Positions 3 to 42,280 of a stretch of DNA of 64,000 nt are shown piece by piece. A model generated the notes under the pieces. That model was not told the origin of the DNA, did not search any database, and saw nothing but the letters and a program-made list of their open reading frames with translations. The stretch spans positions 256,001 through 320,000 of the IMG/VR virus record IMGVR_UViG_3300028840_006907; one strand, given 5' to 3'. The translations under genes were made by a program, and so were the position numbers. Numbering within the stretch: the stretch's first letter is position 1; each line of letters begins with the position of its first letter. The DNA is from a virus.

Positions 3-656
3 AGATATTATGGAGGATTATTTTTCGAATCATCGAGTAGTATGTATTTATCTTCCGTATCATCATTTACTCCTCCTGCAAATTGTTCTGTCTCTTTTTG
101 GCTCTTTCATAGTAATGATGGTGGCACTCCTAGAATAGTTAGCCATAGTGATAATTGGGAAATATGGATAAATGCAAGTAATCAAATATCTAATGATATG
201 AATTGGGGTACTTCTTTGGTATCTAGTGCTACTATTAATACTAATACACGATATTATATAGTATGTACAAGAGCTTCTGACAATACTTTACAAATATATG
301 TAAATGGCCAATTTGATAATTCTAGTAGTGGTGGAACAGGTTCACCAGGATCGGCCACGTTTTATGTAGGTGTTAAACAAACATTATTACAATATTTTGA
401 TGGTTATATAGAAGATTTAAGAATTTATAATAGAGTCCTTTCAGCAAATGAAATAGCCACTATTTATGGCTGTAAAGGAACAGATTCCATTACTTATGGC
501 TTAATTCATAAATGGCCTATGCAAGAAAAGGCAATAGATGTGGTTGCTAGTGGAACCGGGTCTATAATAGATTTAGGTCCAAGTAGACTAGATTTGACTC
601 CTAATAATAATCCTACTTATTCTGGAACACAATTGAAATTTAAAAGGTTTGGATAA
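3..656 (+). CDS. fiber-like protein, C-terminal LamG-type jellyroll module (5' partial, gene starts upstream of window)
   Basis: Frame is open from nt 3 with no stop; track ORF 42-656 aligns with the C-terminal ~200 aa of three downstream paralogs (FTPP..CSVSFW, YxVCT, EDLRIYNR, basic C-terminus). Confidence 0.55.
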   Translation, partial: RYYGGLFFESSSSMYLSSVSSFTPPANCSVSFWLFHSNDGGTPRIVSHSDNWEIWINASNQISNDMNWGTSLVSSATINTNTRYYIVCTRASDNTLQIYVNGQFDNSSSGGTGSPGSATFYVGVKQTLLQYFDGYIEDLRIYNRVLSANEIATIYGCKGTDSITYGLIHKWPMQEKAIDVVASGTGSIIDLGPSRLDLTPNNNPTYSGTQLKFKRFG

Positions 657-2878
657 TGGGTAAACAAATTTTTAGTTCAGAGGGTTCCGATACTTTCACT
701 GTACCAAAAGGAGTGACTTCCATTACTGTCAAGGCATGGGGTGCAGGAGCTGGTGGTGGAGGGGGTGGAACGGCTAGTGTTGGTGGAGCCGGAGGTGGTG
801 GAGGTTATGTTCAGGGTGATATATCTGTAACACCTGAAGAAACCCTTAATATTCATGTAGGTGGAAATGGAGGTTTAGGAACTTTTACAGGTACCGCAGC
901 TTCTGGTGGTGGGGGAGGAGGTAAATCTTCAGTTTACAGAAGTACAACTCCTTTATTTGTAGCTGGCTCTGGAGGAGGCGGAGGTGGTGGTGATAATTCA
1001 TCAGGGACTCCGGCGGGAGCCGGAGGTGCTGGTGGAGGAAGTACTGGTGGGTCTGGTGGTTCTTCCGGAGGAGCTAGTGGCGGTAGTGGTGGCACTCAGT
1101 CAATTGGTGGAACACAGGGTTCTGGAGGTCAAAATGCAGGAGTTTTTGGAAAAGCTCGTGCAGAAACCACTTTAAATAATGCCTTAAATTTTGATGGTGA
1201 TCCTGAATATGTTACAATAGGAACAGATTCTGTTTTTAATTTTACTAATTCTTTTACCCTTGAATGTTGGATTAAACCCGATAATGTAACAGGATCTAAA
1301 AGGGTAATAAGTTCAAGATCATCTGATACCAATAATGGAGTTGGATTTGGTATTAACGGTAACAATCCTGCTTTTACAACATATGGTAAACAAGATTTTA
1401 CTTCTACTGGAACCGTTTCAGCAGGAGTTTGGGCTCATATAGCAGTAGTCTTTACTTCAGGTAATAATGCAAGATTTTATATAAATGGAGAGTTTATAAA
1501 TCAGGTAGACGGTACCCAAGCAGCTACAACTTCTGGTATATATATGGTTCTTGGTATGCTTGGTTTTTATGATGATGAACAATATTGGGTAGGTGAACTT
1601 GATGAAATAAGAATGTGGAATGATGAGCGTACTGATAAAGAGATATCTGATTATTATGCTCAAACTCTTACAGGTAGTGAAGCAAACTTAGTCGCTTACT
1701 ATAAATGTAATGAATCATCAGGTACAAATCTTCCCGACGAAACCACAAATAGTAATGATGGCACACTCCAAAATATGGAAGATGCTGATTGGGTTACATC
1801 AAGTTGGTCTCCATTGACAGACGCTGCTGATGCTGGGGCTGGTGGTGACGGTGGAATGGGTACTGGCACTGGGGGTGGTGGCTCTGGTGGCACAACATAT
1901 GGCGGTGATGGTGGAATTGGTGATAGTGGTGGCACCCCTGGATTTTCTGGCGGTGGCGGAGGCGGTGCAGGCTATGGTGGAGGTGGCGGGGGATCATGTT
2001 CGGTTTCTGGCGGAGACGCTGGTGGTGGTGGGGGCGCTGGCTCTAGCTATATTATAGGTACCGCTACGTCAACTACCAATACGCAAGCATCAGGCCAGAA
2101 TCCACCTAATACGGGCGACCCAGACTATACTGGTTCTGTAGGAGTTGGAGGAAATGGGGGTAGTACAAGTACAAATGGGAATAATGGTAATGATGGTTTA
2201 ATAGTTATCAGTTGGGTTGACCCTCCAGCATATATAGGTATGAAATTTGAATCAGATAGTTCACAATTTTTGTCTTCTGTAGCAAATTTTACCGCTCCTT
2301 CTAGTACAACTGTTACATTTTGGTTATCTTCTACTAATCTCACAGGATTAAAAAGAATTATTGGTTGGTCCGATTTTTGGGAAATAAAGACGATTGATAA
2401 TGATATATCTAATGATTTAAATGGAGAGTTAACCACTTATTCTACAACTCCATTAGATCTTAATACTCTTTATCATGTTGCTTGTACATATAATTCCTCT
2501 GATGATGCTGCGAAAGTATATATAGATGGGTCTCTTGATGGTACGGGTTCAAATACTGAAACTCCTTCTGGAACAACACTACAAATAGGTTTTAGACCTG
2601 GTGCACCTGACGGTTATTTTGACGGTTATTTAGGTGATATAAGAATTTATGATAGGGTTTTATCTGATTTTGAAATAGCCACAATTCATGCATGTCGAGG
2701 AACTGATGGAATAGTCCATGGTTTACGTAATAGGTATTTATTAAATGAAAGAGCAATGAATGTTGCTGCTGATGGGACAGGTTCGGTTAAAGATATGGCT
2801 CAGGATCAATTAAACATGACTCCAAATAATAGTCCTGTTTATGAAGGAACAACATTAAAATATAGAAGGATGGGTTGA
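656..2878 (+). CDS. Gly-rich repeat protein with two LamG-type jellyroll segments (fiber/adhesin-like)
   Basis: 740 aa; ATG overlaps upstream stop (TAATG); long poly-Gly tracts; LamG-like motifs LDEIRMWN and GDIRIYDR; C-terminal module shared with neighbours. Confidence 0.7.
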   Translation: MGKQIFSSEGSDTFTVPKGVTSITVKAWGAGAGGGGGGTASVGGAGGGGGYVQGDISVTPEETLNIHVGGNGGLGTFTGTAASGGGGGGKSSVYRSTTPLFVAGSGGGGGGGDNSSGTPAGAGGAGGGSTGGSGGSSGGASGGSGGTQSIGGTQGSGGQNAGVFGKARAETTLNNALNFDGDPEYVTIGTDSVFNFTNSFTLECWIKPDNVTGSKRVISSRSSDTNNGVGFGINGNNPAFTTYGKQDFTSTGTVSAGVWAHIAVVFTSGNNARFYINGEFINQVDGTQAATTSGIYMVLGMLGFYDDEQYWVGELDEIRMWNDERTDKEISDYYAQTLTGSEANLVAYYKCNESSGTNLPDETTNSNDGTLQNMEDADWVTSSWSPLTDAADAGAGGDGGMGTGTGGGGSGGTTYGGDGGIGDSGGTPGFSGGGGGGAGYGGGGGGSCSVSGGDAGGGGGAGSSYIIGTATSTTNTQASGQNPPNTGDPDYTGSVGVGGNGGSTSTNGNNGNDGLIVISWVDPPAYIGMKFESDSSQFLSSVANFTAPSSTTVTFWLSSTNLTGLKRIIGWSDFWEIKTIDNDISNDLNGELTTYSTTPLDLNTLYHVACTYNSSDDAAKVYIDGSLDGTGSNTETPSGTTLQIGFRPGAPDGYFDGYLGDIRIYDRVLSDFEIATIHACRGTDGIVHGLRNRYLLNERAMNVAADGTGSVKDMAQDQLNMTPNNSPVYEGTTLKYRRMG

Positions 2879-2881
2879 TAA

Positions 2882-5173
2882 ATGGGACAGCAATCTTTCA
2901 GTACAGCCGGTTTAACTTCATTTCAAGTTCCTGTTGATATTACATCTATAACGGTAAAGTGTTGGGCTGGTGGAGCTGGTGGAGGAGCCGGGGGGACTTC
3001 TGGTGTTGGAGGAGTGGGTGGCGGTGGTGGCTATGTTCAGGGAGATATAACCGTCACTCCTTCGGAAATACTTAGTATTCATCTTGGGGGTGCTGGGAAT
3101 TCAGGAAGTTTTGGAGGAACTTCTGGTTCTGGAGGTGGTGGTGCTGGTCTATCTAGTGTCTCGCGTGGCTCAACACCTTTATTTGTAGCCGGAGCAGGTG
3201 GGGGAGGCGGTGGTGGAGACAATAGTAATCCGGCTGCTGGTGGAGCTGGTGGGGCAGGAGGTTCCTCTACCGGAGGAACTGGAGGCAGTTCTCTAAATGC
3301 CAATGGAGGAACTGGTGGAAGTCAAGTATCTGGTGGTACTGGTGGTACTGGTGGTATAGTTTCAGGTGCTGCTGGAGGTGCCCCTATTTCTGCAGCAGCT
3401 AATTTTGGTAATTGCCTTGACTTTGATGGAACAGATGAATGGGTCTCTTCAGCTAATTCTTATTCTAATCCTCAGACTTTTACAACTGAGTTATGGTTTA
3501 AAACTACCACTACTTCAGGAGGATTATTAATTGGTTTCGGAAACAGTCAAACAGGAACTTCTACCAGTTATGACAGAAGGATCTGGTTAAGTAATTCCGG
3601 AAATGTCTATTGTGGAGTTTATGCTGGATTAATTTTAGGAGTTCAGACGGTAAATTCTTCTGGTACATATAATGATGGAGAATGGCATCATGTTGCAATG
3701 GTCCATGACTCTGGAGGGTTTGAATTATTTGTTGATGGTATATCACAAGGAACAAATGCAAATCCTTCACAAGATACTTTTACAGGTTACTGGCGACTCG
3801 CAGGAACTACGGTTTGGTCGGGATGGTCTCCTGCTCCTACTAATAATTATTATGTAGGTCAAATTGATGAAGTCAGATTTTGGCAAGAAGCTCGAACAAC
3901 TTGTCAATTAATAAATAATGCAAATAAATATTTAGCTGGAACTGAGACTAATTTAGCTTTTTATTGGAAATTAAATGAATCTTCCGGTTCTACCGCAAAT
4001 GATGAAACTACCAATAATAATGATGGCACACTCCAAAATATGGAAGATGCAGACTGGGTTACTTCTAGTTGGAGTGGTAAGTGGATAGGTATTGGTACTG
4101 GAGGTGATGGTGGAGACGGTAATGATGGAGGGACTACTAGAGGATCAGAGGCTAATGGAGGTATCACTTGTGCTGGATCAGGTGGTACAGCCGATGTCGG
4201 TGCTGCTGGTTATGGTGGCGGTGGTGGCGGTGGCGCTGGTTACGGTGGAGGTGGAGGAGGCTCGGCTTCTCAAGCTTCAAATGCTGGTGGAGGTGGTGGA
4301 GGAGGTGGCTCCAGTTATATAATTGGTTCTGCTACGTCAACTACCAATACGCAAGCTTCGGGACAGAATCCTCCCAACACAAGCGACCCGGACTATACTG
4401 GTTCTGCAGGAGTTGGTGGAAATGGGGGTGCTACAAGTACTGCAGGATCAAATGGTAATAATGGTTTGATTGTTATTAGTTGGACAGAACCTCCGACATA
4501 TGTTGGGATAACATTTGTAGCGAGTAGTTCTCAAAGATTGGCATCAGTAGCAAATTTTACTCCTCCTCAAAATTGCTCCGTATCATGGTGGTTAAAACTA
4601 TCTTCGTTGAATCAGTTTGGGAGGACAGCAAGTCTAAGTGTTAATTGGGAAATAGGTCTATCTGATAATGCAGGTACTCCTACTGCTAATGGTATTATTA
4701 ATGCTATGAATAGTGGTGCTCTTTTGTATTCTTCAACAAGTCTTCAAGCTGATCTTCGTTATCATGTTGTATGTACAGCAACTTCTAGTGCCCGTCAAAT
4801 ATTTTTAAATGGTGTTCTTGATAATAGTGCTGCTTCTGGAGGGACTGCTCCTGCAGCAGGGACTCTTTATGTTGGATGTCAATATGGTGGAACTCTATAT
4901 TTTCTTGATGGGGCTATAGAGGATTTAAGGGTATATAATCGGATAATTACTGCAGAAGAAGTGGCTACAATTTATGCTTGTGAAGGAAGAGACGGTATAA
5001 CATATGGCTTAATACATCGATGGCCTATGAATGAAGGTGCAGCAGGTGTTGTAGCGAGTGGTACTGGTTCTGTAAAAGATGAGGCTACAAATCAATTGAA
5101 TTTAACTGCAACTAATAGTCCAGTTTATTCTGGATCACAATTGAATTATAGACGAAAATATAGGACTCATTAA
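2882..5173 (+). CDS. Gly-rich repeat protein with two LamG-type jellyroll segments (paralog of 656-2878)
   Basis: 763 aa; same architecture; shares identical peptide NDGTLQNMEDADWVTSSWS and near-identical DNA patches with 656-2878. Confidence 0.7.
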   Translation: MGQQSFSTAGLTSFQVPVDITSITVKCWAGGAGGGAGGTSGVGGVGGGGGYVQGDITVTPSEILSIHLGGAGNSGSFGGTSGSGGGGAGLSSVSRGSTPLFVAGAGGGGGGGDNSNPAAGGAGGAGGSSTGGTGGSSLNANGGTGGSQVSGGTGGTGGIVSGAAGGAPISAAANFGNCLDFDGTDEWVSSANSYSNPQTFTTELWFKTTTTSGGLLIGFGNSQTGTSTSYDRRIWLSNSGNVYCGVYAGLILGVQTVNSSGTYNDGEWHHVAMVHDSGGFELFVDGISQGTNANPSQDTFTGYWRLAGTTVWSGWSPAPTNNYYVGQIDEVRFWQEARTTCQLINNANKYLAGTETNLAFYWKLNESSGSTANDETTNNNDGTLQNMEDADWVTSSWSGKWIGIGTGGDGGDGNDGGTTRGSEANGGITCAGSGGTADVGAAGYGGGGGGGAGYGGGGGGSASQASNAGGGGGGGGSSYIIGSATSTTNTQASGQNPPNTSDPDYTGSAGVGGNGGATSTAGSNGNNGLIVISWTEPPTYVGITFVASSSQRLASVANFTPPQNCSVSWWLKLSSLNQFGRTASLSVNWEIGLSDNAGTPTANGIINAMNSGALLYSSTSLQADLRYHVVCTATSSARQIFLNGVLDNSAASGGTAPAAGTLYVGCQYGGTLYFLDGAIEDLRVYNRIITAEEVATIYACEGRDGITYGLIHRWPMNEGAAGVVASGTGSVKDEATNQLNLTATNSPVYSGSQLNYRRKYRTH

Positions 5174-5220
5174 TTATAAAATTTACATATAAGATCTATA
5201 TAACATATAAGGAGGTTCAA

Positions 5221-5736
5221 ATGTATAAAACAGCATTAGTATGTGGAGTCTGGGACAAATTGCATGAAGGGCATAAAAATATAATTAAATATTCTATAGA
5301 AAATTCTGAATTACTGAAAATTTTTGTATTAGAAATTAATATACATGATAGACATGAAGAGCCTTTTATACCTTATGAAGAAAGAAAAAAAACAGTCGAA
5401 AATTATGTCCTTTCTTTAGGGGCAAGAGATAAGGTACAAATAATAGGAAAAAAAGATGCTACGGAAGTTATGGTATTGGATGAATTGAGAACTGTAGATT
5501 GCGCCTTTGCTTGTGCTAAAGATAAAAATCAGCAAATTTTAGAAATGATAAAAATAACTCAAGATAGAGTTGCTAAATTAGAAGGCCCTGATGGACGTAA
5601 GCCATTTGTTATGGAATGGGTAGATCCTGTGAAAAATGATGAAGGAAAAATAATCTCTTCAAGTAAATACAGGAAAAAAAGCCGTTTAGAAAAAGAAAAG
5701 AGAGTAAATTCTTCAGGTGGATATGGTCGATTTTAA
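5221..5736 (+). CDS. HIGH-motif nucleotidyltransferase (cytidylyltransferase-like)
   Basis: AGGAGG RBS upstream; N-terminal GVWDKLHEGH matches the GxFDxxHxGH signature of glycerol-3-P cytidylyltransferase-type enzymes. Confidence 0.5.
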   Translation: MYKTALVCGVWDKLHEGHKNIIKYSIENSELLKIFVLEINIHDRHEEPFIPYEERKKTVENYVLSLGARDKVQIIGKKDATEVMVLDELRTVDCAFACAKDKNQQILEMIKITQDRVAKLEGPDGRKPFVMEWVDPVKNDEGKIISSSKYRKKSRLEKEKRVNSSGGYGRF

Positions 5737-6959
5737 TGGCACAATATAAAGTTCGTACATCTAATGCTAACCAAGGCCAGTATATGAAAAATGCTGGCTC
5801 TCGAACTACTACTGGTCCATTACAATTTGGGAGATCTGGTAAAGGAACAGCAAATGATGTTCGAATAGCTTTAAGATGGCAACCAAATATAGATATGACT
5901 GGTAAATATATGATAGTTACTTCTGCCTATATTCGTGTTACAAGAGAGACTGAAGATACTGGCGCATTTACAGCTACAGTTAGAGTGCATAATGGTTCTG
6001 CTCCTGATTTATCTACAACTGATTTAGCTTGGGGTTATTCTGATATAGGTTATTCTCAATCATGGTCGATAGCAGATTCATGGAGTGCTGATACTGAATT
6101 TACTTCACCTGATATGAAAAGCGCAGTACAAGCTTGGTTTAATAGGAGTGCTCATTCAAGTACGGATTGGATTGGTTTCATTATTGATGATGGTGATTCT
6201 GCTGATGATGAATATAAAGGAGTCTATGATGCTGATCATTCTACTTCAAGTTATCGTCCTGAATTAGAAATAAATTATAAAATATATTCAGGAGGAGATA
6301 ATGGTGGATTATCTTTTACAGCATCGAGTTCTCAGTATTTGGAATCAGTTAGTAATATTACACCTCCTGCAACATCTTCAGTATCTTTTTGGATTTATTT
6401 AACTGAATTGAATCAATTTGGTCGAACTATTAGTCGATTTGCTTATGAAATTGGTCTATCAGATAATGCCGGATCTCCTCCTAATGGGATAGTTAATGCT
6501 ATGACTAGTGGAACTATACTTGTATCAAGTTCTCTTACAGTGAATACCCTTTATCATTGTGTTTGTACGGCCTCATCTACTGCTCGACAGATATATCTTA
6601 ATGGAGTATTGAATACTTCAGGAGGTGGTGGTACGGTATCAACAGCAGGGACTATGTGGATCGGGTCACAAGATGGTGTTGATTTTTTCCTATCTGGTCA
6701 TTTAGAAGATATACGAATTTATAATCGTATCCTTACATTAGCTGAAGTTCAAACTATTTATGCTTGCCAAGGCTCAGATAGTATTACTTATGGATTAATT
6801 CATAGATGGCTTATGAATGAGGGTCCGATAAGTTCGGTAGCAAGTGGTACTGGACTAGTAAAAGATTATGGGATAAATCAAGTAAATATGACTCCATTTA
6901 ATAGTCCAGTTTTTTTAGGAACTCAAATGAAAAATAGGAATAAGTATAGGACCCATTAG
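5736..6959 (+). CDS. fiber-like protein, unique N-terminal domain plus shared C-terminal LamG-type module
   Basis: 407 aa; ATG overlaps upstream stop; C-terminal ~200 aa paralogous to 3-656 and to C-termini of 656-2878 and 2882-5173 (EDIRIYNR, ...KYRTH end). Confidence 0.65.
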   Translation: MAQYKVRTSNANQGQYMKNAGSRTTTGPLQFGRSGKGTANDVRIALRWQPNIDMTGKYMIVTSAYIRVTRETEDTGAFTATVRVHNGSAPDLSTTDLAWGYSDIGYSQSWSIADSWSADTEFTSPDMKSAVQAWFNRSAHSSTDWIGFIIDDGDSADDEYKGVYDADHSTSSYRPELEINYKIYSGGDNGGLSFTASSSQYLESVSNITPPATSSVSFWIYLTELNQFGRTISRFAYEIGLSDNAGSPPNGIVNAMTSGTILVSSSLTVNTLYHCVCTASSTARQIYLNGVLNTSGGGGTVSTAGTMWIGSQDGVDFFLSGHLEDIRIYNRILTLAEVQTIYACQGSDSITYGLIHRWLMNEGPISSVASGTGLVKDYGINQVNMTPFNSPVFLGTQMKNRNKYRTH

Positions 6960-7048
6960 GTTGTAATAATGTATAAATATTTCATTAATAATATTACAGG
7001 AATATGTCGATTTTAAAAAGATTTGGATAAAAATAAGGAGATTTTAAA

Positions 7049-8779
7049 ATGGCAGATGTATTAAATAGAACAACGAAAGAACAGAGGTTCAGTGTTCATA
7101 CTCCCGATTATTCAGTAGTAGACTGGATAATAAATCCAGATCTATCCGGAGTGATTGGAGTCCCAGTAAAATATTGGAAAATAGATGGTGATGTTGTTTC
7201 AGAGATGAATCAATCTGAAAAAGATGCGGTTGATAGTGCTCTATTGCCTGGTATAAAAACAGCTAAAAAAGCTTCTTTAAGAACAGAGGGTGACCAATTA
7301 ATAGAAAATCAAGGCTATTCAGCAGGTAAACAAAGATCATTAATTTCTCAGCATTCTAAAAGTACTAAAATGAAACCCAAAAGAGAAAAGTATGTTAGAG
7401 ATTTTATGGATTGGATTGAGCAAGTAGATGAAGAAGTCGTATTAAAACAAGATTTGGTAGATGATCAGACTTCAGAAGCAGGAGTAAATTCTGTTATTTT
7501 AGATTCTGCAGGTCTTATTGCTGCTGATCCTGGTGTTACCATTTCAGGTACTCTTGATACTACAGATAGTTCTAGCTTAGATAATTATCTTGATACAAAT
7601 GCTGAAGTGACTGATCCATTAACCGGTATTGTAGGTCCGTGGGATCAAATGCAGATATTAAATCATCGACGTGAAATATATAATGACTCATCAAATCCAA
7701 TTTATTGGCCTGATAATACTGCCATTTTAGGTTCGGGAGGTTATTTAGAAGATCATGCCAATCGGATTAATAATCTTGAAGTGATTCATGGAAAGTTAGG
7801 TTGGCATAATCAATTAATAACTCAAGCGACTTATACTCGACCTAAAGATCTGCTCATTTATTATGGGTGGTTAAACTCTTATAATTCAGGAATTCTTTCT
7901 TGGAACAATGAGAGCGTGGCTCAGCATATGGCGAGATATAGTCTTCTTGTTTTTGGAGACGGTATTCAGGATCCTGGCCATGGAGATTATGCCAATACTC
8001 AAGTTATTGTTCCACGTGTAAAGGCTTTAAGTTGTTATTCTGAAATTTATGGCTATGTAACTGTTGATCAAACTTTTAGTGATTTTACTTCAAAAGTTGA
8101 TCAATGGGATACCTTACAAGTAGATGGAATATTTTTAGATGAAGCGGGTTATGATCATGGTCGGACTCGGGATGAATTTAATCAGAGAGTAGATTATGTC
8201 CATGGCAAAACTTATGCTAATAAATGTTTTGCTAATGCTTGGAATACAGATCATATTTTAGGAATAACCAATGATCCTAGTTATCCTGATTCTACATATA
8301 ATGACTCTTGTGCTGAATCTAATTTAACTTTAAACGATTGGATTCTTCTTGAAAGTTTTCCTGTCAATACTACAGCATATGCAGCAAATGATGGGTATGA
8401 ATCTATCAGTGATTGGGCCACAAGAGGAGTAAAAGCGAAAGATTTAAGAGCTACATATGGTGTAAATTTTGCCAGTGTTAGTATGATTTCCAATGACCAT
8501 ACAGATAATACTGCTTTATCTAACTTTGCCTTTACTTCTTCGATGATGTTTTCATTAGAAGGTCATGGAACCTCAGATACCAATTATGCTGCTAGTTCTG
8601 CTAGGGTTAATTATTTTCCTCGTCCAGATATCACACAAATGGGAGTTGTTTATAGCTTAAATTGTTCTGTCCAAATTGATGCGAATGATTCGTCAGTCTA
8701 TCATAGATATACACCGAATGCTAAAATGTCGTTAGATTTTTCTGATGGTGCTCATACAAGTACTATAGCAAAATTTTAA
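7049..8779 (+). CDS. putative TIM-barrel glycoside hydrolase (GH114/spherulin-4-like), long form
   Basis: 576 aa; C-terminal ~300 aa paralogous to 9276-10208 (LLIYYGWLN, LVFGDGIQDP, VDGIFLDEAGYD); family assignment is by motif resemblance only. Confidence 0.5.
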   Translation: MADVLNRTTKEQRFSVHTPDYSVVDWIINPDLSGVIGVPVKYWKIDGDVVSEMNQSEKDAVDSALLPGIKTAKKASLRTEGDQLIENQGYSAGKQRSLISQHSKSTKMKPKREKYVRDFMDWIEQVDEEVVLKQDLVDDQTSEAGVNSVILDSAGLIAADPGVTISGTLDTTDSSSLDNYLDTNAEVTDPLTGIVGPWDQMQILNHRREIYNDSSNPIYWPDNTAILGSGGYLEDHANRINNLEVIHGKLGWHNQLITQATYTRPKDLLIYYGWLNSYNSGILSWNNESVAQHMARYSLLVFGDGIQDPGHGDYANTQVIVPRVKALSCYSEIYGYVTVDQTFSDFTSKVDQWDTLQVDGIFLDEAGYDHGRTRDEFNQRVDYVHGKTYANKCFANAWNTDHILGITNDPSYPDSTYNDSCAESNLTLNDWILLESFPVNTTAYAANDGYESISDWATRGVKAKDLRATYGVNFASVSMISNDHTDNTALSNFAFTSSMMFSLEGHGTSDTNYAASSARVNYFPRPDITQMGVVYSLNCSVQIDANDSSVYHRYTPNAKMSLDFSDGAHTSTIAKF

Positions 8780-8788
8780 GAGGATTTT

Positions 8789-9262
8789 ATGGATGTTTTA
8801 TTTGATGTTTATGATTCTGTTGGGGGTGTAGATGTTGATAGTGCTGTAACAGTATTATTTGATACTTCGAGATATATATGTAATAATGTGTCTTTATTAT
8901 CAGGAGAAATTAATATCTTACCTAATTCTCATAGTATAATTCCTCCAGACAATGATATCTTATTACTTATGGCAAAAGTTACAATAGATGCTGTTAGTGG
9001 GAATAATCAAACTCAAGCAAAGATATGGCTCGAAGTTGACACAGGTTCAGGTTATGTAGTGGTACCTGGAACTGATAGTTATTCTTATAGTATTTCAAAT
9101 AGTGTGGGTCATGGTACTGCTATTATAAATACCACATATCAAATTAGTAAATTAAATAAGATTATTTGTAAATTTAGAGTTAGAGCAGAAAAATCAGTGG
9201 GGAATAATTCTTTAAGTACACTAGCTCAAGCTAGTAATTTCATAGGTTTAATTAACGAATGA
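8789..9262 (+). CDS. hypothetical protein
   Basis: 157-aa ORF with RBS-like AAGAGGA upstream, located between the two glycosidase-like paralogs. Confidence 0.55.
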   Translation: MDVLFDVYDSVGGVDVDSAVTVLFDTSRYICNNVSLLSGEINILPNSHSIIPPDNDILLLMAKVTIDAVSGNNQTQAKIWLEVDTGSGYVVVPGTDSYSYSISNSVGHGTAIINTTYQISKLNKIICKFRVRAEKSVGNNSLSTLAQASNFIGLINE

Positions 9263-10782: not shown

Positions 10783-11141
10783 TAACTGAAATTGATGATG
10801 ATAGTAAAGACATAAAGATAAAATTAGGAAATTTATTTGAAAAATATGAAAATCTTTATCGGGAAGGGAATAGACAGTTTAGAACAGAGAGAATAGCTTC
10901 TGCTGGGTCAATGGATGGTCTGGAAGAATTTCGTCGTTTGATGCTTATTGTAAAAAGAAATAAGGATGTAGTGGCCTCGCTAATGCGGGGTATAGCTAAT
11001 TTTAGGTCTATTTCAAATTTTAAGTTTGTAGAAGAGGAAGTAGAAATTTCAAAACCGAAACCAAAGAAAACAAAGAAAGCTACTCCTGAAAAAGTGATCA
11101 TACCTATACCAATAGTAGCGGAGGAATTTAATGGCGAATAA
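10761..11141 (+). CDS. hypothetical protein
   Basis: 126-aa ORF overlapping the previous by 22 nt; K/E-rich C-terminus. Confidence 0.5.
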   Translation: MPDFNKLITEIDDDSKDIKIKLGNLFEKYENLYREGNRQFRTERIASAGSMDGLEEFRRLMLIVKRNKDVVASLMRGIANFRSISNFKFVEEEVEISKPKPKKTKKATPEKVIIPIPIVAEEFNGE

Positions 11142-14100
11142 ACGAATAAGAGTTGTAACAGCGCAAGATAATGTACCGAAACGGGCAACTCGAAGAAAAG
11201 TAGTCAGCAGGGATACTAATCCTAAGGTGACAAATCTTACAGATAATGAAAAAAGAGCCAGACGGATTGCTACAACAACATCTATGGGATTCGGTCTTCG
11301 TTCTGCAAGTGATATTGTAAATAGCAGTGAAGCAAACTTTTACTCCCCCCAATTAAGTACTGATTTTCTTGAGAAGCCACAGAATCTACGTGAACGTAGA
11401 GCCTTTTATAGATTCTTTTATAATACGAATGAAATTATCGGACAATCTATTGATATTCATTCCACATTACCTCTTTCGAAATTGCGTCTCGTTCCTCCAA
11501 AAGGGAGAAATAAACATCAGAACAATTACGTTTTTAAGTTTTTCCAAAAGATGTGTGATGAAATGAAGCTCTTTAAAACACTTATTGAGATAACTCATGA
11601 ATACTTTCTTTTTGGTAATTGCTTGGCTAAGTATGCCGAGGTAAAGACTCCCTTTGGGTATAAGGAAGCGAAAGAGATAGAAGTAGGTGACTTCTTATTG
11701 ACAGATAAAGGGCGCTATAGGAAAGTCTTGAAGAAATGTGTAAGACCTTCTGAAAATGTTCTCAAAGTTAAATGTTGGAAAGATTTTAGGGAATTACCTG
11801 TTTCTGAAGAACATCCTATAGAAATATTAAAAGATGATGGCTTTGTTTTTGCCCAAGCTGAGGAATTGTCCTTAAACGACTATATCCGAGTTACTTGGCC
11901 TACTGAAATATCTGATAAAGAATATGTTCCTTTTGAATTTACAGATAAATATACAAAAGTGGAAAATGGCTATGAGTTAAAATTTGAAGTACTGCGTACC
12001 AGAAATCCTCATGCTTTCCGTGCTCGAAAAGAATTATTATCATGGCTAAGTTCTTTATCTAAACCAGTAATAAGGACAAGAAAACAGTTGTCCGAAGATT
12101 TTGATGTTCCTCTTTCCACATTGAATAATGTGATTTATAAACTTGGGAAAGAACTTGATGTAAAATTTCATGAAAGAATAGGTGCTTCAGGTTTTCAAAA
12201 AGGTTCTCAAGTAAAATGGTTTCCTATTGAGGACATAGAAGTCACGGATTCCTATAGTATTCATAAAACCCTATTTTTAGATGCTATTGATGGAATTGAT
12301 ATCAATAATGATTTTGCGTATCTTGCAGGATATTGGTTGGGAGATGGCACTTTGGCTCGTGATTCGCAAAGAGGGACATGGGGTCGTGGTTTGTGGCAAA
12401 TTTCAGTAGACCAGGAATTTGAAGGTTTAAATCGGATACGAAGTATTTTACATAATTTTTTTGGTTCTGGTAATGTGATAGAATGGAATTCGGGTAATCT
12501 ACTTTATTTAAAAGTTATCTCAAATCCTGCTTTTTTAGAATGGTGGGCTGAAAATTTTGGTGAAACTTCTTTCGGTAGAAATTATAAAAGAATTCCTGAA
12601 TGGTTTATAAAACTTCCTATGGAAAAACTTCAAAATTTTCTGGCAGGTTTGATAGATTCAGATGGTTGTATTAGTGTGAGTGGTGAAAATCAGAAATGTA
12701 TAACGAATATCTCAATGGCGTCTCGAAATATAATGGATTCTGTAAGAGACATAACTTTAAAATGTGGTGTTGTAGTGAATTACAACGAAGGAACTGAAAG
12801 AGAAGTTACTTTACCACAGGGAGACAAATGTTTCTCAAAAAAAATGTATACTGTAACAGCCTCAGATGAAGAATCCTGTAAAATTTTAACTCAATATGCC
12901 ACAAAAAGTATACCTGTAGATGCCCAATTCTCAGAAATGGGAAGATATTGGATAAGAACTGATTCAGGTTTAGCCTTCAAAATTAAGTCTATAAAAACAG
13001 AAGAATATAATGATTTAGTATACAATTTTGAAGTAGAAGAAGACCATACCTATCAAGTAGCTGGTTTTAGTACTCATAATTGCTTTATTTTTGCTGAAGA
13101 AGATGATTGGAAGGAAGGTATAACTACCGAAAACATAGGACAGAAAAAAGAAGAGGCCAAACAACGTTCCCAGCTCCTTAAAGATAAATTTGATATTAAG
13201 GATAAGAATCCTCTTTATAAAGGATGGAAAAAGCTTCTTATACTTCCTCCTGACCAGGTTAGGGTTCGTAAACTTCCTCTTACTGATGAGGTAGCAATTG
13301 AATATATGCCTGATCCGGAAACTCGAAAATTTCTGACTTCTGATATACCAATTGATCCTACAGATCCTACAAGAAGGTTAGACTATTCTATTTCTAATGA
13401 ATTGCGGGAAAAAGTACGTCAAAGTGGGGTTATACCTTTGGATACCGATCCTTATACAGGTTCACATGTTTTTCATCTGGCAAGAAAGAAATCACAATAT
13501 GAGCCTCTTGGTGTATCTATCGTTGAGCGTTGCATAAATACTCTTGTTTTAATGGATAAATTGAGACAGGCTCAGACATCGATTGCATCGCGTCACATGA
13601 CTCCTATGCGTGTTGTATGGGCTGAGGACTTAAATTCGGATGATGTCGATAATTTACGTGAGCAGGTTGATCTTGCTTTAGTAGATCCTGATTTCAGTAT
13701 TATTGCCAATTATGAAATTCACTGGGAAGAAATGGGATCGAATGGCCGTTTATTAGATGTAGAAGCGGAAATGGAAAGCTCATTAAATAGATTATTTGCC
13801 GGATTAGGTGTGACTCGGGAAATGTTAACTGGTGAAGGTACTTATACAGGGAGTAGAGTTTCATTAGAAATAATGAATACTATGTATCTTCTTTTCCGTG
13901 AAGTGCTCCAGGATTATATAGAAAATACATTGTTTAAGCCTATAGCTAAAAAGAAGGGTTTTATAGAATATGATGAATATGGTAATGAGACACTTCTTTA
14001 TCCGAAAATCAGTTTTACCCGATTGGCTATTAGAGATAATGAGCAATATTTTGACGCAGCCTTTCAGTTATATCAGAAGGGTTCAATTTCCATCGATCTT

Positions 14101-14484
14101 ATTTTGGATATTCTTAATATTGATCCTGATGCGACCAGGGAAAAGATTGAACAAGATCTGTTTACTGTTAATGATAGTCTTTTCAATGAAATGATGAGAA
14201 ACCTTTATACAAATGTGGCTGCCCCACTTGTAGAGGAAACTAATGTTACTGAGAAATTGGCTAAATATCTTCATTTAGAAAAGACTGAAAAACCTGAGGC
14301 CACAGAAGGTGAATCTCGATTTAGTTCTGTTAATGGAAAGGATTACAGGAAAAAGCTTTCAAAAGTCATGAAATACTTTATTGATAATCCTGAAAAATTA
14401 AATTCCATTTTTGCAAAGAATGGACAGTTAAAACCTAAACAAGCGAGAAATAATCAATGCGTTGTCGCTCAATCCCGGAATTAA
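11131..14484 (+). CDS. portal protein interrupted by an intein
   Basis: 1117 aa; GGAGG RBS; exteins (aa 1-163 and 651-1117) total ~630 aa and carry a portal-like LFAGLGVTREMLTGEG motif; sits upstream of scaffold-like and capsid-like genes. Confidence 0.6.
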   Translation: MANKRIRVVTAQDNVPKRATRRKVVSRDTNPKVTNLTDNEKRARRIATTTSMGFGLRSASDIVNSSEANFYSPQLSTDFLEKPQNLRERRAFYRFFYNTNEIIGQSIDIHSTLPLSKLRLVPPKGRNKHQNNYVFKFFQKMCDEMKLFKTLIEITHEYFLFGNCLAKYAEVKTPFGYKEAKEIEVGDFLLTDKGRYRKVLKKCVRPSENVLKVKCWKDFRELPVSEEHPIEILKDDGFVFAQAEELSLNDYIRVTWPTEISDKEYVPFEFTDKYTKVENGYELKFEVLRTRNPHAFRARKELLSWLSSLSKPVIRTRKQLSEDFDVPLSTLNNVIYKLGKELDVKFHERIGASGFQKGSQVKWFPIEDIEVTDSYSIHKTLFLDAIDGIDINNDFAYLAGYWLGDGTLARDSQRGTWGRGLWQISVDQEFEGLNRIRSILHNFFGSGNVIEWNSGNLLYLKVISNPAFLEWWAENFGETSFGRNYKRIPEWFIKLPMEKLQNFLAGLIDSDGCISVSGENQKCITNISMASRNIMDSVRDITLKCGVVVNYNEGTEREVTLPQGDKCFSKKMYTVTASDEESCKILTQYATKSIPVDAQFSEMGRYWIRTDSGLAFKIKSIKTEEYNDLVYNFEVEEDHTYQVAGFSTHNCFIFAEEDDWKEGITTENIGQKKEEAKQRSQLLKDKFDIKDKNPLYKGWKKLLILPPDQVRVRKLPLTDEVAIEYMPDPETRKFLTSDIPIDPTDPTRRLDYSISNELREKVRQSGVIPLDTDPYTGSHVFHLARKKSQYEPLGVSIVERCINTLVLMDKLRQAQTSIASRHMTPMRVVWAEDLNSDDVDNLREQVDLALVDPDFSIIANYEIHWEEMGSNGRLLDVEAEMESSLNRLFAGLGVTREMLTGEGTYTGSRVSLEIMNTMYLLFREVLQDYIENTLFKPIAKKKGFIEYDEYGNETLLYPKISFTRLAIRDNEQYFDAAFQLYQKGSISIDLILDILNIDPDATREKIEQDLFTVNDSLFNEMMRNLYTNVAAPLVEETNVTEKLAKYLHLEKTEKPEATEGESRFSSVNGKDYRKKLSKVMKYFIDNPEKLNSIFAKNGQLKPKQARNNQCVVAQSRN
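11620..13080 (+). mobile_element. intein with LAGLIDADG homing-endonuclease domain (in-frame within portal gene)
   Basis: Begins with Cys after FGN, ends ...STHN followed by Cys; two LAGLIDADG motifs (LAGYWLGDGTL, LAGLIDSDGCI); 487 codons. Confidence 0.75.
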
Positions 14485-17420: not shown

Positions 17421-18989
17421 ATGGCAATGCTAAAATACGGCTCGGCTGTTATAATCGATTCTGAAGTAAGCACTGATCAGTGGTCTAAGAGTGTTTGTTG
17501 CGGTAATAAAGGTAAACATTCTTGTGGTGAAGGTAAATGCCGGGTCAAGATTGCTAAAAATGTATTTGCTAAATATACTCCTGAGAAATACTTATTGAGC
17601 CATTGTACGATTATAGCTGCAGTTGATACTGAATTAGCTAATCCTTCTGATCCTAAAAGTGATTATTATATCCATCCTAATTTTTCCAAATATGTAAATA
17701 ATAATGGTGATGCATGGTCAAAGCAGATGCTTGCTTCATGTTACCGTTCTTTTATAGGTTCCCATAATTACTTGGAACATGTACAAATACCCGAACTCAG
17801 TAAGGGGAGGGTAATTGATGCTATTCTGAGAGAAGTCCCTATAGGACGAGATAAACAGGGTAAAGAGTTAACAACCTATTATGTTGATATTCTTGTTGCT
17901 ACTGAGAGAAAGCATAAACAGTTAATAGCTGATATTCAATCAAAGAAGCTTAATTCTCTTAGTATGGGATGTAAAATAGCTTATAGCATATGTACTAAAT
18001 GTGGTAAAAAGGCAGTAGATGAAACAGAGGCTTGTCAGCATATTCGTTTTGAAAAGAACAATATGTTTTATGATAATAATGGTGTTCAACGTAAGGTAGC
18101 TGAATTGTGTGGCCATTATTCTGAGCCTGAGAGTGTTACTTTCATCGATGCTTCATGGGTAAAAAATCCTGCATTTACTGGTGCTGTAATTCGAAATATC
18201 GTTAATCCACCAGAAAACATCTTGGCTAAAATTGAGGAAGCTAGTAAAAAAGAAAGTTATCTGATTCAAGAAGATGATTTTCTTAAGGCTGCTCATAAAA
18301 TAGCCCAGGATCCTCCAGCAGAAGAAGAACCTCCTGCAGAGGAAGAGACTGCTCCTGATACTGAGGCACCAGAAGCTCCTCCTGAAGAAGCTACTCCAGC
18401 CGATGAAGGTGGTGCTGTTGAAGAGCCTCCTGCCGAGTTACCTGAGGTAGATCAGAATAATGTCAAGACTTGGAAAAATGAGGTAAAGAAAAAGGTCCTT
18501 CAAGAATTGGGTGATGAATTAGTTGAAGAGATGACAAAAGAAGATGATATGGGACCTCGTGAATTAGAAACTTTGGATGATAGTTTAATTCAACCAACCG
18601 CATCTCAAGCATTAAAGCGTATGTGGGTATTAAAGGAAGGTTGGAATAAATTCCTGAAGGAAACGACAAATGGTTTAAGTAAAGATAATCATGATCGGTT
18701 AAAATTCGGTGCTTTCATAATGTTGAATAGCAATGATCCTAAAGTTTTATCTCATTATGGTTATAACCGTAGGGATTTTTTAGCAGTGATGTCTTACATA
18801 GATCAATTTTTTAAGAATCGTTTACCAGTAAGAGTGAAGAAAGCAGTAGCTAAGCTCAATGGTACGAAGGATTTATCATTAAAAGATACTGTACATTCTT
18901 TACAAAAGCTTTCGGGAAAAAGGCTTGCTGAAAAAGAAATTAAGAAGTCTTTAGTGTGGTTAAAATTAATGGATTTGTACAAAGAATAA
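17421..18989 (+). CDS. hypothetical head-module protein with Cys clusters and acidic Pro/Glu-rich segment
   Basis: 522 aa; CCGNKGKHSCGEGKC and CTKCGK...C motifs; low-complexity PPAEEEPPAEEE segment; lies between portal and scaffold-like gene (no protease motifs recognised). Confidence 0.6.
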   Translation: MAMLKYGSAVIIDSEVSTDQWSKSVCCGNKGKHSCGEGKCRVKIAKNVFAKYTPEKYLLSHCTIIAAVDTELANPSDPKSDYYIHPNFSKYVNNNGDAWSKQMLASCYRSFIGSHNYLEHVQIPELSKGRVIDAILREVPIGRDKQGKELTTYYVDILVATERKHKQLIADIQSKKLNSLSMGCKIAYSICTKCGKKAVDETEACQHIRFEKNNMFYDNNGVQRKVAELCGHYSEPESVTFIDASWVKNPAFTGAVIRNIVNPPENILAKIEEASKKESYLIQEDDFLKAAHKIAQDPPAEEEPPAEEETAPDTEAPEAPPEEATPADEGGAVEEPPAELPEVDQNNVKTWKNEVKKKVLQELGDELVEEMTKEDDMGPRELETLDDSLIQPTASQALKRMWVLKEGWNKFLKETTNGLSKDNHDRLKFGAFIMLNSNDPKVLSHYGYNRRDFLAVMSYIDQFFKNRLPVRVKKAVAKLNGTKDLSLKDTVHSLQKLSGKRLAEKEIKKSLVWLKLMDLYKE

Positions 18990-28607: not shown

Positions 28608-29783
28608 ATGATTCCAGAAAATAATTCTCTATTAGATTTGACAGGTGAAAAATTTGGAGACTGGAAAGTTATTTCTCGTGCTTCAAATATTAAAGGCCAT
28701 ACCAGATGGCTTTGTGTCTGTAATTGTGGTAAAAAAGTTCCTGTTTATACCTCAAGTTTAAGGTCAGGAAAATCAACTAGTTGTGGGCATAAGAAAAGAA
28801 ATTTCATAGATTTATCAGGTAAAAGATTTGGTAAGTTATATGTAATTGGTGAGACAACAAAAAACCCTTATACCTATGCCTTAAGATATCGTTCCAAAAA
28901 TAAAGGAAAATGTTGGGAATGTTTATGTGATTGTGGAAATAAATGTATTGTAACTTCTAGGAATTTGTTATCGGGTAATACTAAAAGTTGTGGTTGTTTA
29001 GGGATTTTTTCTGATCCCACTAAAGGTTCTAAAAAGGCTCTTTTTAGAAAATATAAAAGAAGTGCAAAAATAAGAGACCATTCTTTTAATATATCTTTTG
29101 ATCAATTTTTAGTTATGATAGATCAAGAGTGCTTTTATTGTGGAAAAAGTCCTTCTCAAACTTTTAAAGGTAATAGAGAAGATTTTCTTTATAATGGTAT
29201 TGATAGATTAGAGAGTAATAGAGGTTATGAAATAGGTAACATAGTTACTTGTTGTAAAGAATGTAATTATTTAAAATGGACAAAAAGTATTAACGATTTT
29301 TTAATATGGCTAAAAATGTGTTATAATCATTTAAATCTTGAGTTCACTGACTCCCTTTTAACTATCCAAATAAATTCAAATGAAGTGGATATTCAAAATA
29401 ATGAAAAATATAATCTAAGAAAAGATGATCCTTGTTATTACTCTAAGAATACGTTTTATAATGTTTATAAAAATGTTTGTGGTAAGAAAAGAGGGTTAAT
29501 TTTTGAATTGAGTTTTGAGGAATTCTTTTCTATTAGTCAAAGGAAATGTTTTTATTGTGGTATAGAACCTAATAAGCTCTTTAAAAAGGGTTCAAGTAAA
29601 GGATTCTTTTATAATGGTCTTGATAGGATAAATAATGACATGGGTTATATCAAAGATAATATTGTTACTTGTTGTTCAATTTGCAATGAATCTAAGATGA
29701 ATTTAGATCAAAAAATTTTTATTAATAGAATCAAAAAATGCTATGGATATTTAAAGAAATATTATTTAAAAAAATTTTTTTGA
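28608..29783 (+). CDS. tandem HNH-like (His-Me finger/zinc-ribbon) endonuclease-like protein
   Basis: 391 aa; N-terminal CxC..C zinc knuckles; two repeats of CFYCG...YNG(I/L)DR(L/I)..N.GY...NIVTCC..CN..K (HNH-like, His replaced by Arg in DR). Confidence 0.5.
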   Translation: MIPENNSLLDLTGEKFGDWKVISRASNIKGHTRWLCVCNCGKKVPVYTSSLRSGKSTSCGHKKRNFIDLSGKRFGKLYVIGETTKNPYTYALRYRSKNKGKCWECLCDCGNKCIVTSRNLLSGNTKSCGCLGIFSDPTKGSKKALFRKYKRSAKIRDHSFNISFDQFLVMIDQECFYCGKSPSQTFKGNREDFLYNGIDRLESNRGYEIGNIVTCCKECNYLKWTKSINDFLIWLKMCYNHLNLEFTDSLLTIQINSNEVDIQNNEKYNLRKDDPCYYSKNTFYNVYKNVCGKKRGLIFELSFEEFFSISQRKCFYCGIEPNKLFKKGSSKGFFYNGLDRINNDMGYIKDNIVTCCSICNESKMNLDQKIFINRIKKCYGYLKKYYLKKFF

Positions 29784-40930: not shown

Positions 40931-42280
40931 ATGGAACAAAAATTATCGGTTATAGGATTAGGTAAATTGGGCTGTACAATGATGGTATGTTTTGCTCATA
41001 AAGGATGGGAAGTTATAGGGGTTGATGTTAATGAATTAACTATTGAAACTATTCTACGAGGTCGGAGTCCTATCGATGAACCTTTTGTAGAAGAGATGAT
41101 AAGTGATAATGCAGAAAGGATAAGAGTAACATCTGATTGTGAAAATGCTGTTTTAAATAGTGATGTAAGTTTTGTAATAGTTCCTACTCCCAGTAAGGAA
41201 GATGGGTCTTTTTCGACAGAATATGTTGAAAATGCTACAATGGAAGTTGCGAAAGCTTTGACAAAAAAGAACTCTTATCATTTAATTGTAATTACTTCTA
41301 CTGTTCTTCCTGGAGACAGTCTTCGAATTTCTTATGAGATTGCTCGGGAGTCAGGGAAAGAACTAGGAAAGGATTTCGGTGTTGTTTATAATCCTGATTT
41401 CATAGCACTCGGTAAAATTGTCAGCGATTTTTTAAACCCTGACATGATCCTTATCGGTGAGTACGATGAGAAGTCAGGAGATATCATTCAAGACATACAC
41501 CTGAAACTTATAGATAGTAATCCTACTTTTCATAGGATGAATTTCTTTAATGCTGAACTGGCGAAAATTTCTCTTAATGCCTACTGTACTTTGAAAATTA
41601 CTTTTGCGAACATAATCGCGGAGATATGTGAGAATTTACCTGGCGGTGATTCTAATAAAGTCTTAAGTGCTGTAGGAGCTGATAGTCGGGTGGGTCAAAA
41701 ATATCTCAAAGGTGGTTTGGGGTACAGCGGACCATGTTTTCCGCGTGATAATCGAGCCCTCGCCCATTCTGCAAGGTTCTTTGGCACTACAAATTATTTC
41801 TGTGAGATGACAGATGCAATAAACAACTATCATAAAACAGAAAGAATATGCAATCTTTTATTGGGGTACATGGAAGAAAAGAACACAAAAGAATTAGCTA
41901 TACTTGGTTTATCCTATAAGGAAGATACTCCTGTGATTGAAGAATCTGTATCTATTTCAGTTATAAAAACTCTTTGGGAAAAAGGAATGAATATAAAAGT
42001 TTTTGATCCGGTTGCTATGGAAAATGCAAAAAGAGAATTAGAAGGTTATGATAATATTTATTATGCCTCTTCTGAATATGATTGTATAGATGGTACTTCC
42101 GTTTGTTTTATAGCTACTCCTTGGAAACAGTTCTTTAGTTTGAATCATCAAGAAGTAATAAAAAGAATGAAAAAGAGTTCTATTATTCTTGACTCATGGG
42201 GAGTATTACCTTATGACAGAGCAACTAATAGAGGCAAAAAAGTAGAGGTAAAACAACTAGGGAAAAATTATCAATCGTAA
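40931..42280 (+). CDS. UDP-sugar 6-dehydrogenase family protein (UDP-glucose/UDP-ManNAc dehydrogenase-like)
   Basis: 449 aa; N-terminal Rossmann GLGKLG; catalytic-Cys region GGLGYSGPCFPRD. Confidence 0.75.
   Translation: MEQKLSVIGLGKLGCTMMVCFAHKGWEVIGVDVNELTIETILRGRSPIDEPFVEEMISDNAERIRVTSDCENAVLNSDVSFVIVPTPSKEDGSFSTEYVENATMEVAKALTKKNSYHLIVITSTVLPGDSLRISYEIARESGKELGKDFGVVYNPDFIALGKIVSDFLNPDMILIGEYDEKSGDIIQDIHLKLIDSNPTFHRMNFFNAELAKISLNAYCTLKITFANIIAEICENLPGGDSNKVLSAVGADSRVGQKYLKGGLGYSGPCFPRDNRALAHSARFFGTTNYFCEMTDAINNYHKTERICNLLLGYMEEKNTKELAILGLSYKEDTPVIEESVSISVIKTLWEKGMNIKVFDPVAMENAKRELEGYDNIYYASSEYDCIDGTSVCFIATPWKQFFSLNHQEVIKRMKKSSIILDSWGVLPYDRATNRGKKVEVKQLGKNYQS

Follow-up and report, generated by a model that had tools for sequence, protein, structure and literature searches.

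A class 1 LAGLIDADG intein interrupting the portal gene of a huge environmental phage

What interrupts the gene for a putative phage portal protein? The question is raised by an open reading frame (ORF) of 1117 amino acids (aa) in a stretch of viral DNA of 64,000 nucleotides (nt), positions 256,001 to 320,000 of the IMG/VR record IMGVR_UViG_3300028840_006907, which we refer to as the window. The initial annotation, made from the letters of the window, had proposed that the ORF is a portal gene split in frame by an intein with a homing endonuclease. We find that the ORF is very probably a huge-phage portal gene with an in-frame class 1 bifunctional intein, extended by a winged-helix-like module, that both splices and homes. 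Bifunctional LAGLIDADG inteins are textbook elements, of which PI-SceI, the yeast VMA1 intein, is the archetype. The identical 1117-aa precursor is present on six contigs, one of which is a JGI contig of 388,651 bp, and the window therefore comes from a huge phage.

Anatomy of the insert

The precursor gene and its parts, all on the plus strand, are as follows. L004 denotes the locus of the intein-less homologue P0001.

11131..14484 (+): portal precursor gene, comprising N-extein, intein and C-extein (1117 aa, 129 kDa, from the ORF list, stop codon included)
11131..11619 (+): N-extein, portal aa 1-163, with the last residues ...THEYFLFGN, collinear with P0001
11620..13080 (+): class 1 intein, Cys1 to Asn487 (487 aa, 56 kDa), from profiles, alignment and model, and absent from L004
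11620..11904 (+): N-terminal lobe of the Hint splicing domain, with block A containing Cys1 and block B S-E-E-H at nt 11803-11814
11905..12303 (+): accessory module of the ~490-aa intein class only, a predicted beta-hairpin extension and winged-helix-like unit with its core at about nt 12007-12219
12304..12909 (+): LAGLIDADG homing-endonuclease domain, from Pfam LAGLIDADG_3 and Hom_end, from Foldseek, and with nonsynonymous divergence (pN) far below synonymous divergence (pS)
12910..13080 (+): C-terminal lobe of the Hint domain, with block F VYNFEVEEDH (D475/H476, nt 13042-13047) and block G ...STHN (nt 13072-13080)
13081..14484 (+): C-extein (portal aa 651-1117), whose first residue is the +1 nucleophile Cys651 (nt 13081-13083), containing the conserved LFAGLGVTREMLTGEG motif

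The reading frame 11131..14484 runs without interruption, and translation places the insert at ORF residues 164-650, that is, 487 aa or 1461 nt. At the upstream boundary the protein reads ...THEYFLFGN-CLAKYAEV... (the hyphen marking the junction, here and below), with Cys164 at nt 11620. At the downstream boundary it reads ...QVAGFSTHN-CFIFAEEDD..., where Asn650, which follows His649, ends at nt 13080 and is followed by Cys651. The first LAGLIDADG motif, LAGYWLGDGTL, occupies aa 398-408 (nt 12322-12354) and contains the acidic residue D242 of the intein (nt 12343-12345), while the second, LAGLIDSDGCI, occupies aa 504-514 (nt 12640-12672) and contains D348 (nt 12661-12663). Both acidic residues are kept and their spacing is 106 residues. 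In the C-extein, the conserved motif lies at aa 888-903 (nt 13792-13839). The initial annotation had given the limits of the insert, the Cys after FGN, the terminal HN followed by Cys, the two LAGLIDADG motifs and the C-extein motif, and translation bears out each of them at its exact position. Coordinates and motif set of this kind are far beyond chance. The GC content of the window is 33.8%, and GC content at third codon positions is 0.22 for the intein, slightly less than the 0.26 of the exteins.

Profile searches agree with the assignment of the insert to inteins with a homing endonuclease. Pfam LAGLIDADG_3 (E 9.8e-12, 45.4 bits against a cut-off of 22.5) and Hom_end (E 2.6e-6, 27.9 bits against 21.1) both pass, as does NCBIfam TIGR01443 intein_Cterm (15.9 against 15.6), and the best whole-protein matches in NCBIfam are the intein parts of intein-containing ribonucleotide reductase (RNR), Tes and GyrA models. 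For alignment, the window copy was combined with 19 of the 21 inteins excised from portal homologues (n=20), and 19 of these 20 are matched by Pfam Intein_splicing at E<=0.01 (best 4.7e-13). Blocks A, B, F and G, which the initial annotation had expected of a genuine intein, are present in the window copy and invariant across the alignment. C1, E64, H65 and P66 are found in 20/20 sequences with T/S62 nearly so, and toward the C-terminus V467, N469, E473, D475, T477, T485, H486 and N487 are likewise found in 20/20. At block B position 62, at least 90% of the homologues have Thr and the window intein has Ser (S62-E-E-H65). All 22 complete inteins of this site (the window's and 21 homologues) are followed by Cys at +1. 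The splicing residues are unchanged although overall identity to the window intein drops to 31-45% for many of its homologues, as expected if every copy must splice for an essential portal.

The structural evidence points in the same direction. An AlphaFold model of the intein, built on the 20-intein alignment, has a mean predicted local distance difference test score (pLDDT) of 89.4 and a predicted template modelling score of 0.79. Its N-terminal Hint lobe, which has a sequence match to the gp41-1 intein, is strand-rich with pLDDT about 95. The best solved-structure matches found by Foldseek are PI-SceI (E 1.5e-18), TliVMA, PI-TkoII (2cw7) and PI-PfuI, followed by the free-standing LAGLIDADG enzymes I-DmoI, I-OnuI and I-AniI and then by the mini-inteins gp41-1, DnaB and Prp8. 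The pseudo-dimeric alpha-beta-beta-alpha-beta-beta-alpha fold is recovered through the matches to I-DmoI, I-OnuI and I-AniI and to PI-SceI and PI-PfuI in their endonuclease domains. As in the four inteins that are its best structural matches (E 1.5e-18 to 4e-11), the Hint domain of the window intein is split by a two-motif LAGLIDADG endonuclease, and it shares with them Cys1, the penultimate His, the terminal Asn, the +1 Cys and a distance of about 106 aa between motifs. Unlike them, it is hosted by a phage portal and not by an ATPase, RNR or polymerase, and its identity to them is just 11-15%. Overall, the window intein is well-formed and probably active.

Between the N-terminal Hint lobe and the endonuclease sits the accessory module of about 115-130 aa, which according to the alignment occurs only in inteins of the ~490-aa class and is missing from the 351-363-aa and mini classes. 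Its secondary structure in the model consists of helices (H) and strands (E) in the order H130-145, E150-153, H154-161, H165-179, E184-187 and E197-200, an arrangement that suggests a winged-helix-like fold. Searched alone, the module matched no Pfam family, and against PDB sequences it gave only a non-significant similarity to Z-alpha winged-helix domains (E about 0.5). The module may be a DNA-recognition add-on. Any equivalence to the DNA-recognition region of PI-SceI or to the stirrup domain of PI-PfuI would be conjectural, and our literature search found no inteins with winged-helix modules.

If the insert works as other class 1 inteins do, the gene would be translated as a 129-kDa precursor in which an N-S acyl shift at Cys164 would create a thioester. 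Trans-thioesterification would then move the N-extein onto Cys651, Asn650 would cyclise with the aid of His649 and the block-F Asp/His, and an S-N shift would produce a normal peptide bond. The predicted products are a portal of 630 aa (73 kDa) with the junction ...EYFLFGN-CFIFAEE..., for which the ligated junction peptide expected from splicing is TLIEITHEYFLFGNCFIFAEEDDWK, and a free intein of 56 kDa. In mixed infections, the free intein would cleave the portal genes of relatives that lack the element, at the FGN-(A/C)F codons, with DNA recognition by the LAGLIDADG domain and probably also by the winged-helix-like module, and repair from the intein-bearing copy would convert the cut allele, which constitutes homing. 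That the window's endonuclease is still active, where it cuts and what the accessory module does are parts of this scheme that we infer.

The host protein and its full, decayed and empty alleles

For the joined exteins (630 aa), the best PHROG match is family 16240, 'portal protein' (E 4e-31), and two more portal PHROGs are matched as well. A tblastn search against cultured phages recovers genes annotated as portals in the 308-kb Tunturiibacter phage Tunturi_5 and the 497-kb Bacillus phage G, together with an ORF that bears no annotation in a 485-kb uncultured phage. A megablast search with 11 kb around the portal gene against 50,697 phage genomes gave zero matches, and the phage is without a close cultured relative. 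P0001, the closest natural allele that lacks the intein (630 aa, 85% identical), was modelled with a mean pLDDT of 66.6, rising to about 90 around the insertion site. All 50 PDB matches listed for this model are portal or neck-complex entries, including those of lambda, T4, 812, Chi, HK97, T7, G20C and HFTV1. The gene neighbourhood contains virion structural genes upstream (656-8779) and a prohead-protease-like gene downstream (17421-18989).

In the P0001 model, the insertion site is flanked by helix 147-161 and strand 163-170 and is well packed, with pLDDT about 90. Because the extein family has no PDB sequence match, the site is located from the fold-level match and from the secondary structure of the model itself and not residue by residue on a solved portal, and the usual order of portal elements would place the site in the wing domain. 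The segment directly downstream of it varies in length among relatives. In the Tunturi_5 portal (L001 2869-5316), a low-complexity insert of roughly 220 aa, rich in Ala, Gly, Asp and Glu, lies just downstream of the equivalent site, and the region therefore tolerates large non-intein insertions.

Intein-less alleles, which the initial annotation had suggested seeking in related contigs, are abundant, and L004 provides the clearest case. Its gene order is the same as in the window, with DNA identity of about 73-81% on both flanks, and the two sequences align base for base across the site except that nt 11620-13080 (1461 nt, 487 codons) are precisely absent from L004. Where L004 reads GGTAAC-GCATTC (Asn-Ala), the window reads GGTAAT, the intein and then TGCTTT (Asn-Cys). 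With the intein removed, the fused junction DNA of the window is TACTTTCTTTTTGGTAAT followed by TGCTTTATTTTTGCTGAAGAA, and the empty site of L004 is TATTTTTTATTTGGTAAC followed by GCATTCCTGTTTTGTGAAGAT.

An extein search returned 1572 homologues. A near-full-length set was formed from the window protein and 114 of the listed matches (n=115), and 20 of these 115 sequences carry an intein, all at the same codon. The inteins fall into three size classes. Those of 487-491 aa have the extra ~115-aa module and intact acidic residues in both LAGLIDADG motifs, which are kept in 6/6 of the ~490-aa inteins aligned with the window's, as in the window's own. Those of 351-363 aa are without the accessory module and have lost both acidic residues in five of six cases and one in the sixth, with motif pairs such as GYWLGNG with GLVDSSG and GSWLGSQW with GIIDSSL. 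Those of 150-185 aa are mini-inteins without any endonuclease. When the sequences are clustered by extein similarity, the three classes and the empty state are interleaved, even among members of the clade with 83% or more identity to the window. Such a mixture of full, decayed, mini and empty alleles would be the expected record of a homing cycle of invasion, fixation, endonuclease decay, deletion and precise loss. An intein at this codon is present in over 25 independent homologues drawn from JGI, ENA, NCBI and Logan assemblies. One homologue already bears the label 'intein/homing endonuclease' from JGI automatic annotation.

The residue at +1 is Cys in all intein-bearing alleles and mostly Ala in empty ones, in which Cys, Thr, Val and Ser are also found. 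Several empty alleles (P0043, P0045, P0079 and P0092 among others) have the same flanks as occupied ones, FGN-CFIFAEE, with Cys at +1. These Cys-bearing empty alleles may mark places from which an intein was precisely lost or, alternatively, ready-made homing sites.

To follow the intein beyond close relatives, an exhaustive HMMER scan was required, since most known homologues escaped a word-indexed protein search that used only the intein as query. Against 1.84 billion representatives, the scan with the window intein returned 2145 matches at E<=1e-3 and 20 at E<=1e-30. The top representatives (P0121 and P0132-P0152) are portal homologues throughout. P0121 is a portal fragment with an intein at the same codon, and P0132-P0152 are 24-68% identical to P0001 by blastp, with 20 of the 21 interrupted at the equivalent of P0001 residue 163. 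The window's intein allele, accessory module included, is thus spread over a very deep radiation of portals. Starting with P0153, the matches are inteins of other proteins such as RNR, and it is mainly the endonuclease and the C-terminal Hint part that match.

The same portal homologues revealed further intein sites, which in P0001 numbering lie near 98 (P0144, P0146), near 110 (P0135, P0151), near 313-315 in the invariant ERC motif (P0151, P0137) and near 345-364 (P0147, P0148). The portal superfamily thus has inteins at five or more sites, with at most two inteins per gene. In P0151, the sites at ~110 and ~314 are occupied and the window's site is empty. Within the 64-kb window, an intein-family hidden Markov model run over six-frame ORFs of at least 80 aa found no second related intein. 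A related-intein match in the huge phage LR756511.1 was considered as a portal and rejected, being a ribonucleotide reductase with two inteins. This 1297-aa ORF (L010 2329-6222, in a 595-kb record without annotation) carries two LAGLIDADG inteins.

Mobility signals and competing explanations

Over 190 pairs, extein and intein similarity are only weakly correlated, with a Spearman coefficient of 0.36. P0007 is 83% identical to the window in the extein and 41% in the intein, and P0069 is 69% identical in the extein and 59-65% in the intein. This discordance fits repeated invasion of one site better than strict co-descent, and ancient lineage sorting might also account for it. Selection was assessed by comparing the window with three intein-bearing relatives, and pN and pS are reported instead of dN/dS for most segments because synonymous sites are saturated. 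In these comparisons, nonsynonymous differences in the endonuclease and accessory modules are much scarcer than synonymous ones. Relative to P0004, the two modules have pN of 0.15-0.17 and pS of 0.57-0.63, a difference that points to purifying selection on the endonuclease. Synonymous divergence is smaller in the intein than in the exteins, where it is saturated, and this hints weakly that the inteins share a more recent ancestor.

Several results weigh against reading the insert as an intein that splices out of a portal protein and homes. Splicing and DNA cleavage are activities that we infer, splicing from the invariance of catalytic residues in an essential gene. Pfam Intein_splicing (PF14890) scores 33.9 bits on the window intein (E 3.4e-8), slightly below its cut-off of 35.8, so the expected match of the insert to intein and LAGLIDADG profiles holds for LAGLIDADG_3, Hom_end and TIGR01443 and falls short for this family. 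The expectation that the exteins would match portal profiles was likewise borne out by PHROG and not by Pfam, where no portal family exceeds its threshold (best Portal_Mu, 14.7 bits against 23.9), and a profile built from 45 intein-less portals had zero matches among PDB sequences. The signals of selection and transfer are semi-quantitative because synonymous sites are near saturation. Finally, the exact junction patterns of an empty site with the window's own flanking DNA are unmatched in IMG/VR and JGI metagenome contigs, and recent homing in the window's lineage is therefore not documented. This last result, together with the decayed or deleted endonucleases of many same-site relatives, which make loss of activity common in the family, lends some support to a more modest explanation. 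The intein could be splicing-competent with an endonuclease that is now inactive or without targets, and its inheritance could be purely vertical, the element persisting because imprecise loss would destroy the essential portal. We take this to be possible and, on balance, rather unlikely, since the window copy retains both catalytic residues, D242 and D348, the endonuclease domain folds confidently in the model, pN stays well under pS in both the endonuclease and the accessory module, and intein and extein similarity are discordant, as for lateral movement.

It is very improbable that the insert is a domesticated, non-splicing Hint/LAGLIDADG domain retained in the mature portal. Nothing specific speaks for such retention apart from the general tolerance of portals for adjacent insertions, of which the Tunturi_5 segment is an example, and the invariance of C1, the block-B His, the block-F Asp, the His-Asn pair and the +1 Cys in 20/20 inteins at 31-45% identity argues for the opposite. 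So do the contrast at +1 between intein-bearing alleles (always Cys) and empty ones (Ala in most) and the position of the site at a well-packed helix-strand junction. We find it equally hard to credit that the host is some other large virion or packaging protein, for example a terminase or a polymerase. The Pfam portal result would be consistent with that idea, and the intein segment matches one PHROG labelled terminase large subunit, a match that most likely arises because that family contains inteins. The three PHROG matches of the exteins are all to portals, however, and both the 50 listed Foldseek matches of the P0001 model and the annotations of the cultured-phage homologues point to a portal. 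The suggestion that the long ORF arose by chimeric assembly or faulty gene calling has next to no probability, with no supporting point on its side. The presence of the identical protein on six contigs means that it is no one-off assembly error, and the same-codon homologues are independent and the frame is uninterrupted. Both the artefact and the non-portal readings were accordingly rejected, the former by contig recurrence and the latter by PHROG, fold and annotated homologues.

A bolder version of the preferred reading, in which a splicing and homing intein has consequences for the phage, appears doubtful, and we would give it little weight. The intein, with its accessory winged-helix-like module for DNA binding, would then be an actively homing element that decides co-infections between related huge phages, in that it cuts intein-less portal alleles and so converts or excludes them. 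Alternatively or in addition, splicing might depend on conditions, with a Cys1/Cys+1 redox switch as one example, and might thereby time the supply of portal competent for assembly. On this view the portal superfamily would be an unusually dense intein hot spot.

Known portal inteins and other features of the window

Inteins in portal genes are not new. Six have been described in cluster C1 mycobacteriophages (Kelley et al., 2016, PMC5050341), and a 2025 survey of actinobacteriophages lists the portal among the invaded proteins and divides its polyphyletic inteins into five groups (bioRxiv 10.1101/2025.01.02.630785). Like these elements, the window intein resides in a tailed-phage portal gene, occurs sporadically and has a LAGLIDADG endonuclease, as they often do (PMC5050341; 10.1101/2025.01.02.630785). 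Unlike them, it is hosted by a 389-kb environmental huge phage and not by a cluster C1 mycobacteriophage or another actinophage. Neither the window intein nor its extein had an actinobacteriophage match in tblastn searches against 50,697 phage records, and the window intein is thus not the same allele as the actinophage ones.

A more distant comparison is offered by Eggerthella phage LE2-3 (MW679026.1, LE23_67), whose portal is homologous to the window extein at 21.5% identity over 40% of its length. It also carries a LAGLIDADG intein, whose endonuclease and C-terminal Hint part match the window's at 25% identity (E 1e-15). Its insertion site is located about 55-60 residues further upstream (...NPVMRA-CHPAGT...GFASHN-CLEVY...), and the intein is without the winged-helix-like module, because the match spans window intein residues 226-487 only. 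In the LE2-3 record (L009 1736-4957), the 1073-aa product is entered simply as 'portal protein' and the intein is unannotated.

Introns and inteins are common in large phage genomes, including those of crAss-like and Jug phages (PMC12880540). The window intein resembles the homing endonucleases of large phages, whether free-standing or carried by introns or inteins (T4-type marker exclusion; the crAss-like and Jug elements, PMC12880540), in that selfish endonucleases accumulate in essential genes and spread during co-infection, and it differs from the reported crAss-like and Jug cases in that those concern terminase, RNR and polymerase genes (PMC12880540). No description of portal inteins in huge phages was found in the literature searched. 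The window intein presents no new mechanism, and only the accessory module and the multi-site hot spot are mildly novel.

For annotation, the 1117-aa product is best described as a portal precursor with an intein, and the size of the mature portal, 630 aa (73 kDa), is relevant to virion proteomics and to portal-based phylogenies. The natural series at one site, from empty through full with module to decayed and mini, in host genes that are 56-87% identical, lends itself to studying how the homing cycle proceeds, and both the mini-inteins (150-185 aa) and the full endonuclease are possible sources of new splicing or meganuclease scaffolds. The locus is also one more indication that, in very large phage genomes, essential genes gather selfish elements.

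Other features of the window and its relatives are of separate interest. At 8789-9262, between genes of 576 aa and 310 aa, the window has a 157-aa ORF that is absent from L004 and in place of which L006 has a 158-aa gene, a small indel-type difference adjoining the portal module. No tRNA or transfer-messenger RNA genes were found in the 64-kb window. A free-standing 391-aa protein is encoded at 28608-29783 and has two HNH/EndoVII-like stretches (PHROG 374 at 7e-29, PHROG 1035 at 2e-28). From these matches, it is a putative second, independent homing-endonuclease-type gene of the window. It is followed by a same-strand run of about 30 kb (29866-58963), much of which is formed by ~20 consecutive ORFs of 220-360 aa. 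This run includes glycosyltransferase-methyltransferase fusions at 29866-31947 and 36336-39320 (994 aa) and a UDP-glucose dehydrogenase at 40931-42280 (PHROG 9148 at 1e-81), and it looks like a sugar-modification island that is large for a phage. In the uncultured huge phage LR745208.1 (L002 1025-2308), a 427-aa ORF on the opposite strand adjoins an intein-less portal homologue and, judged by eye from its C-terminal CxxC...CxxC pattern, looks like a putative TnpB-type protein of the IS200/IS605 family.

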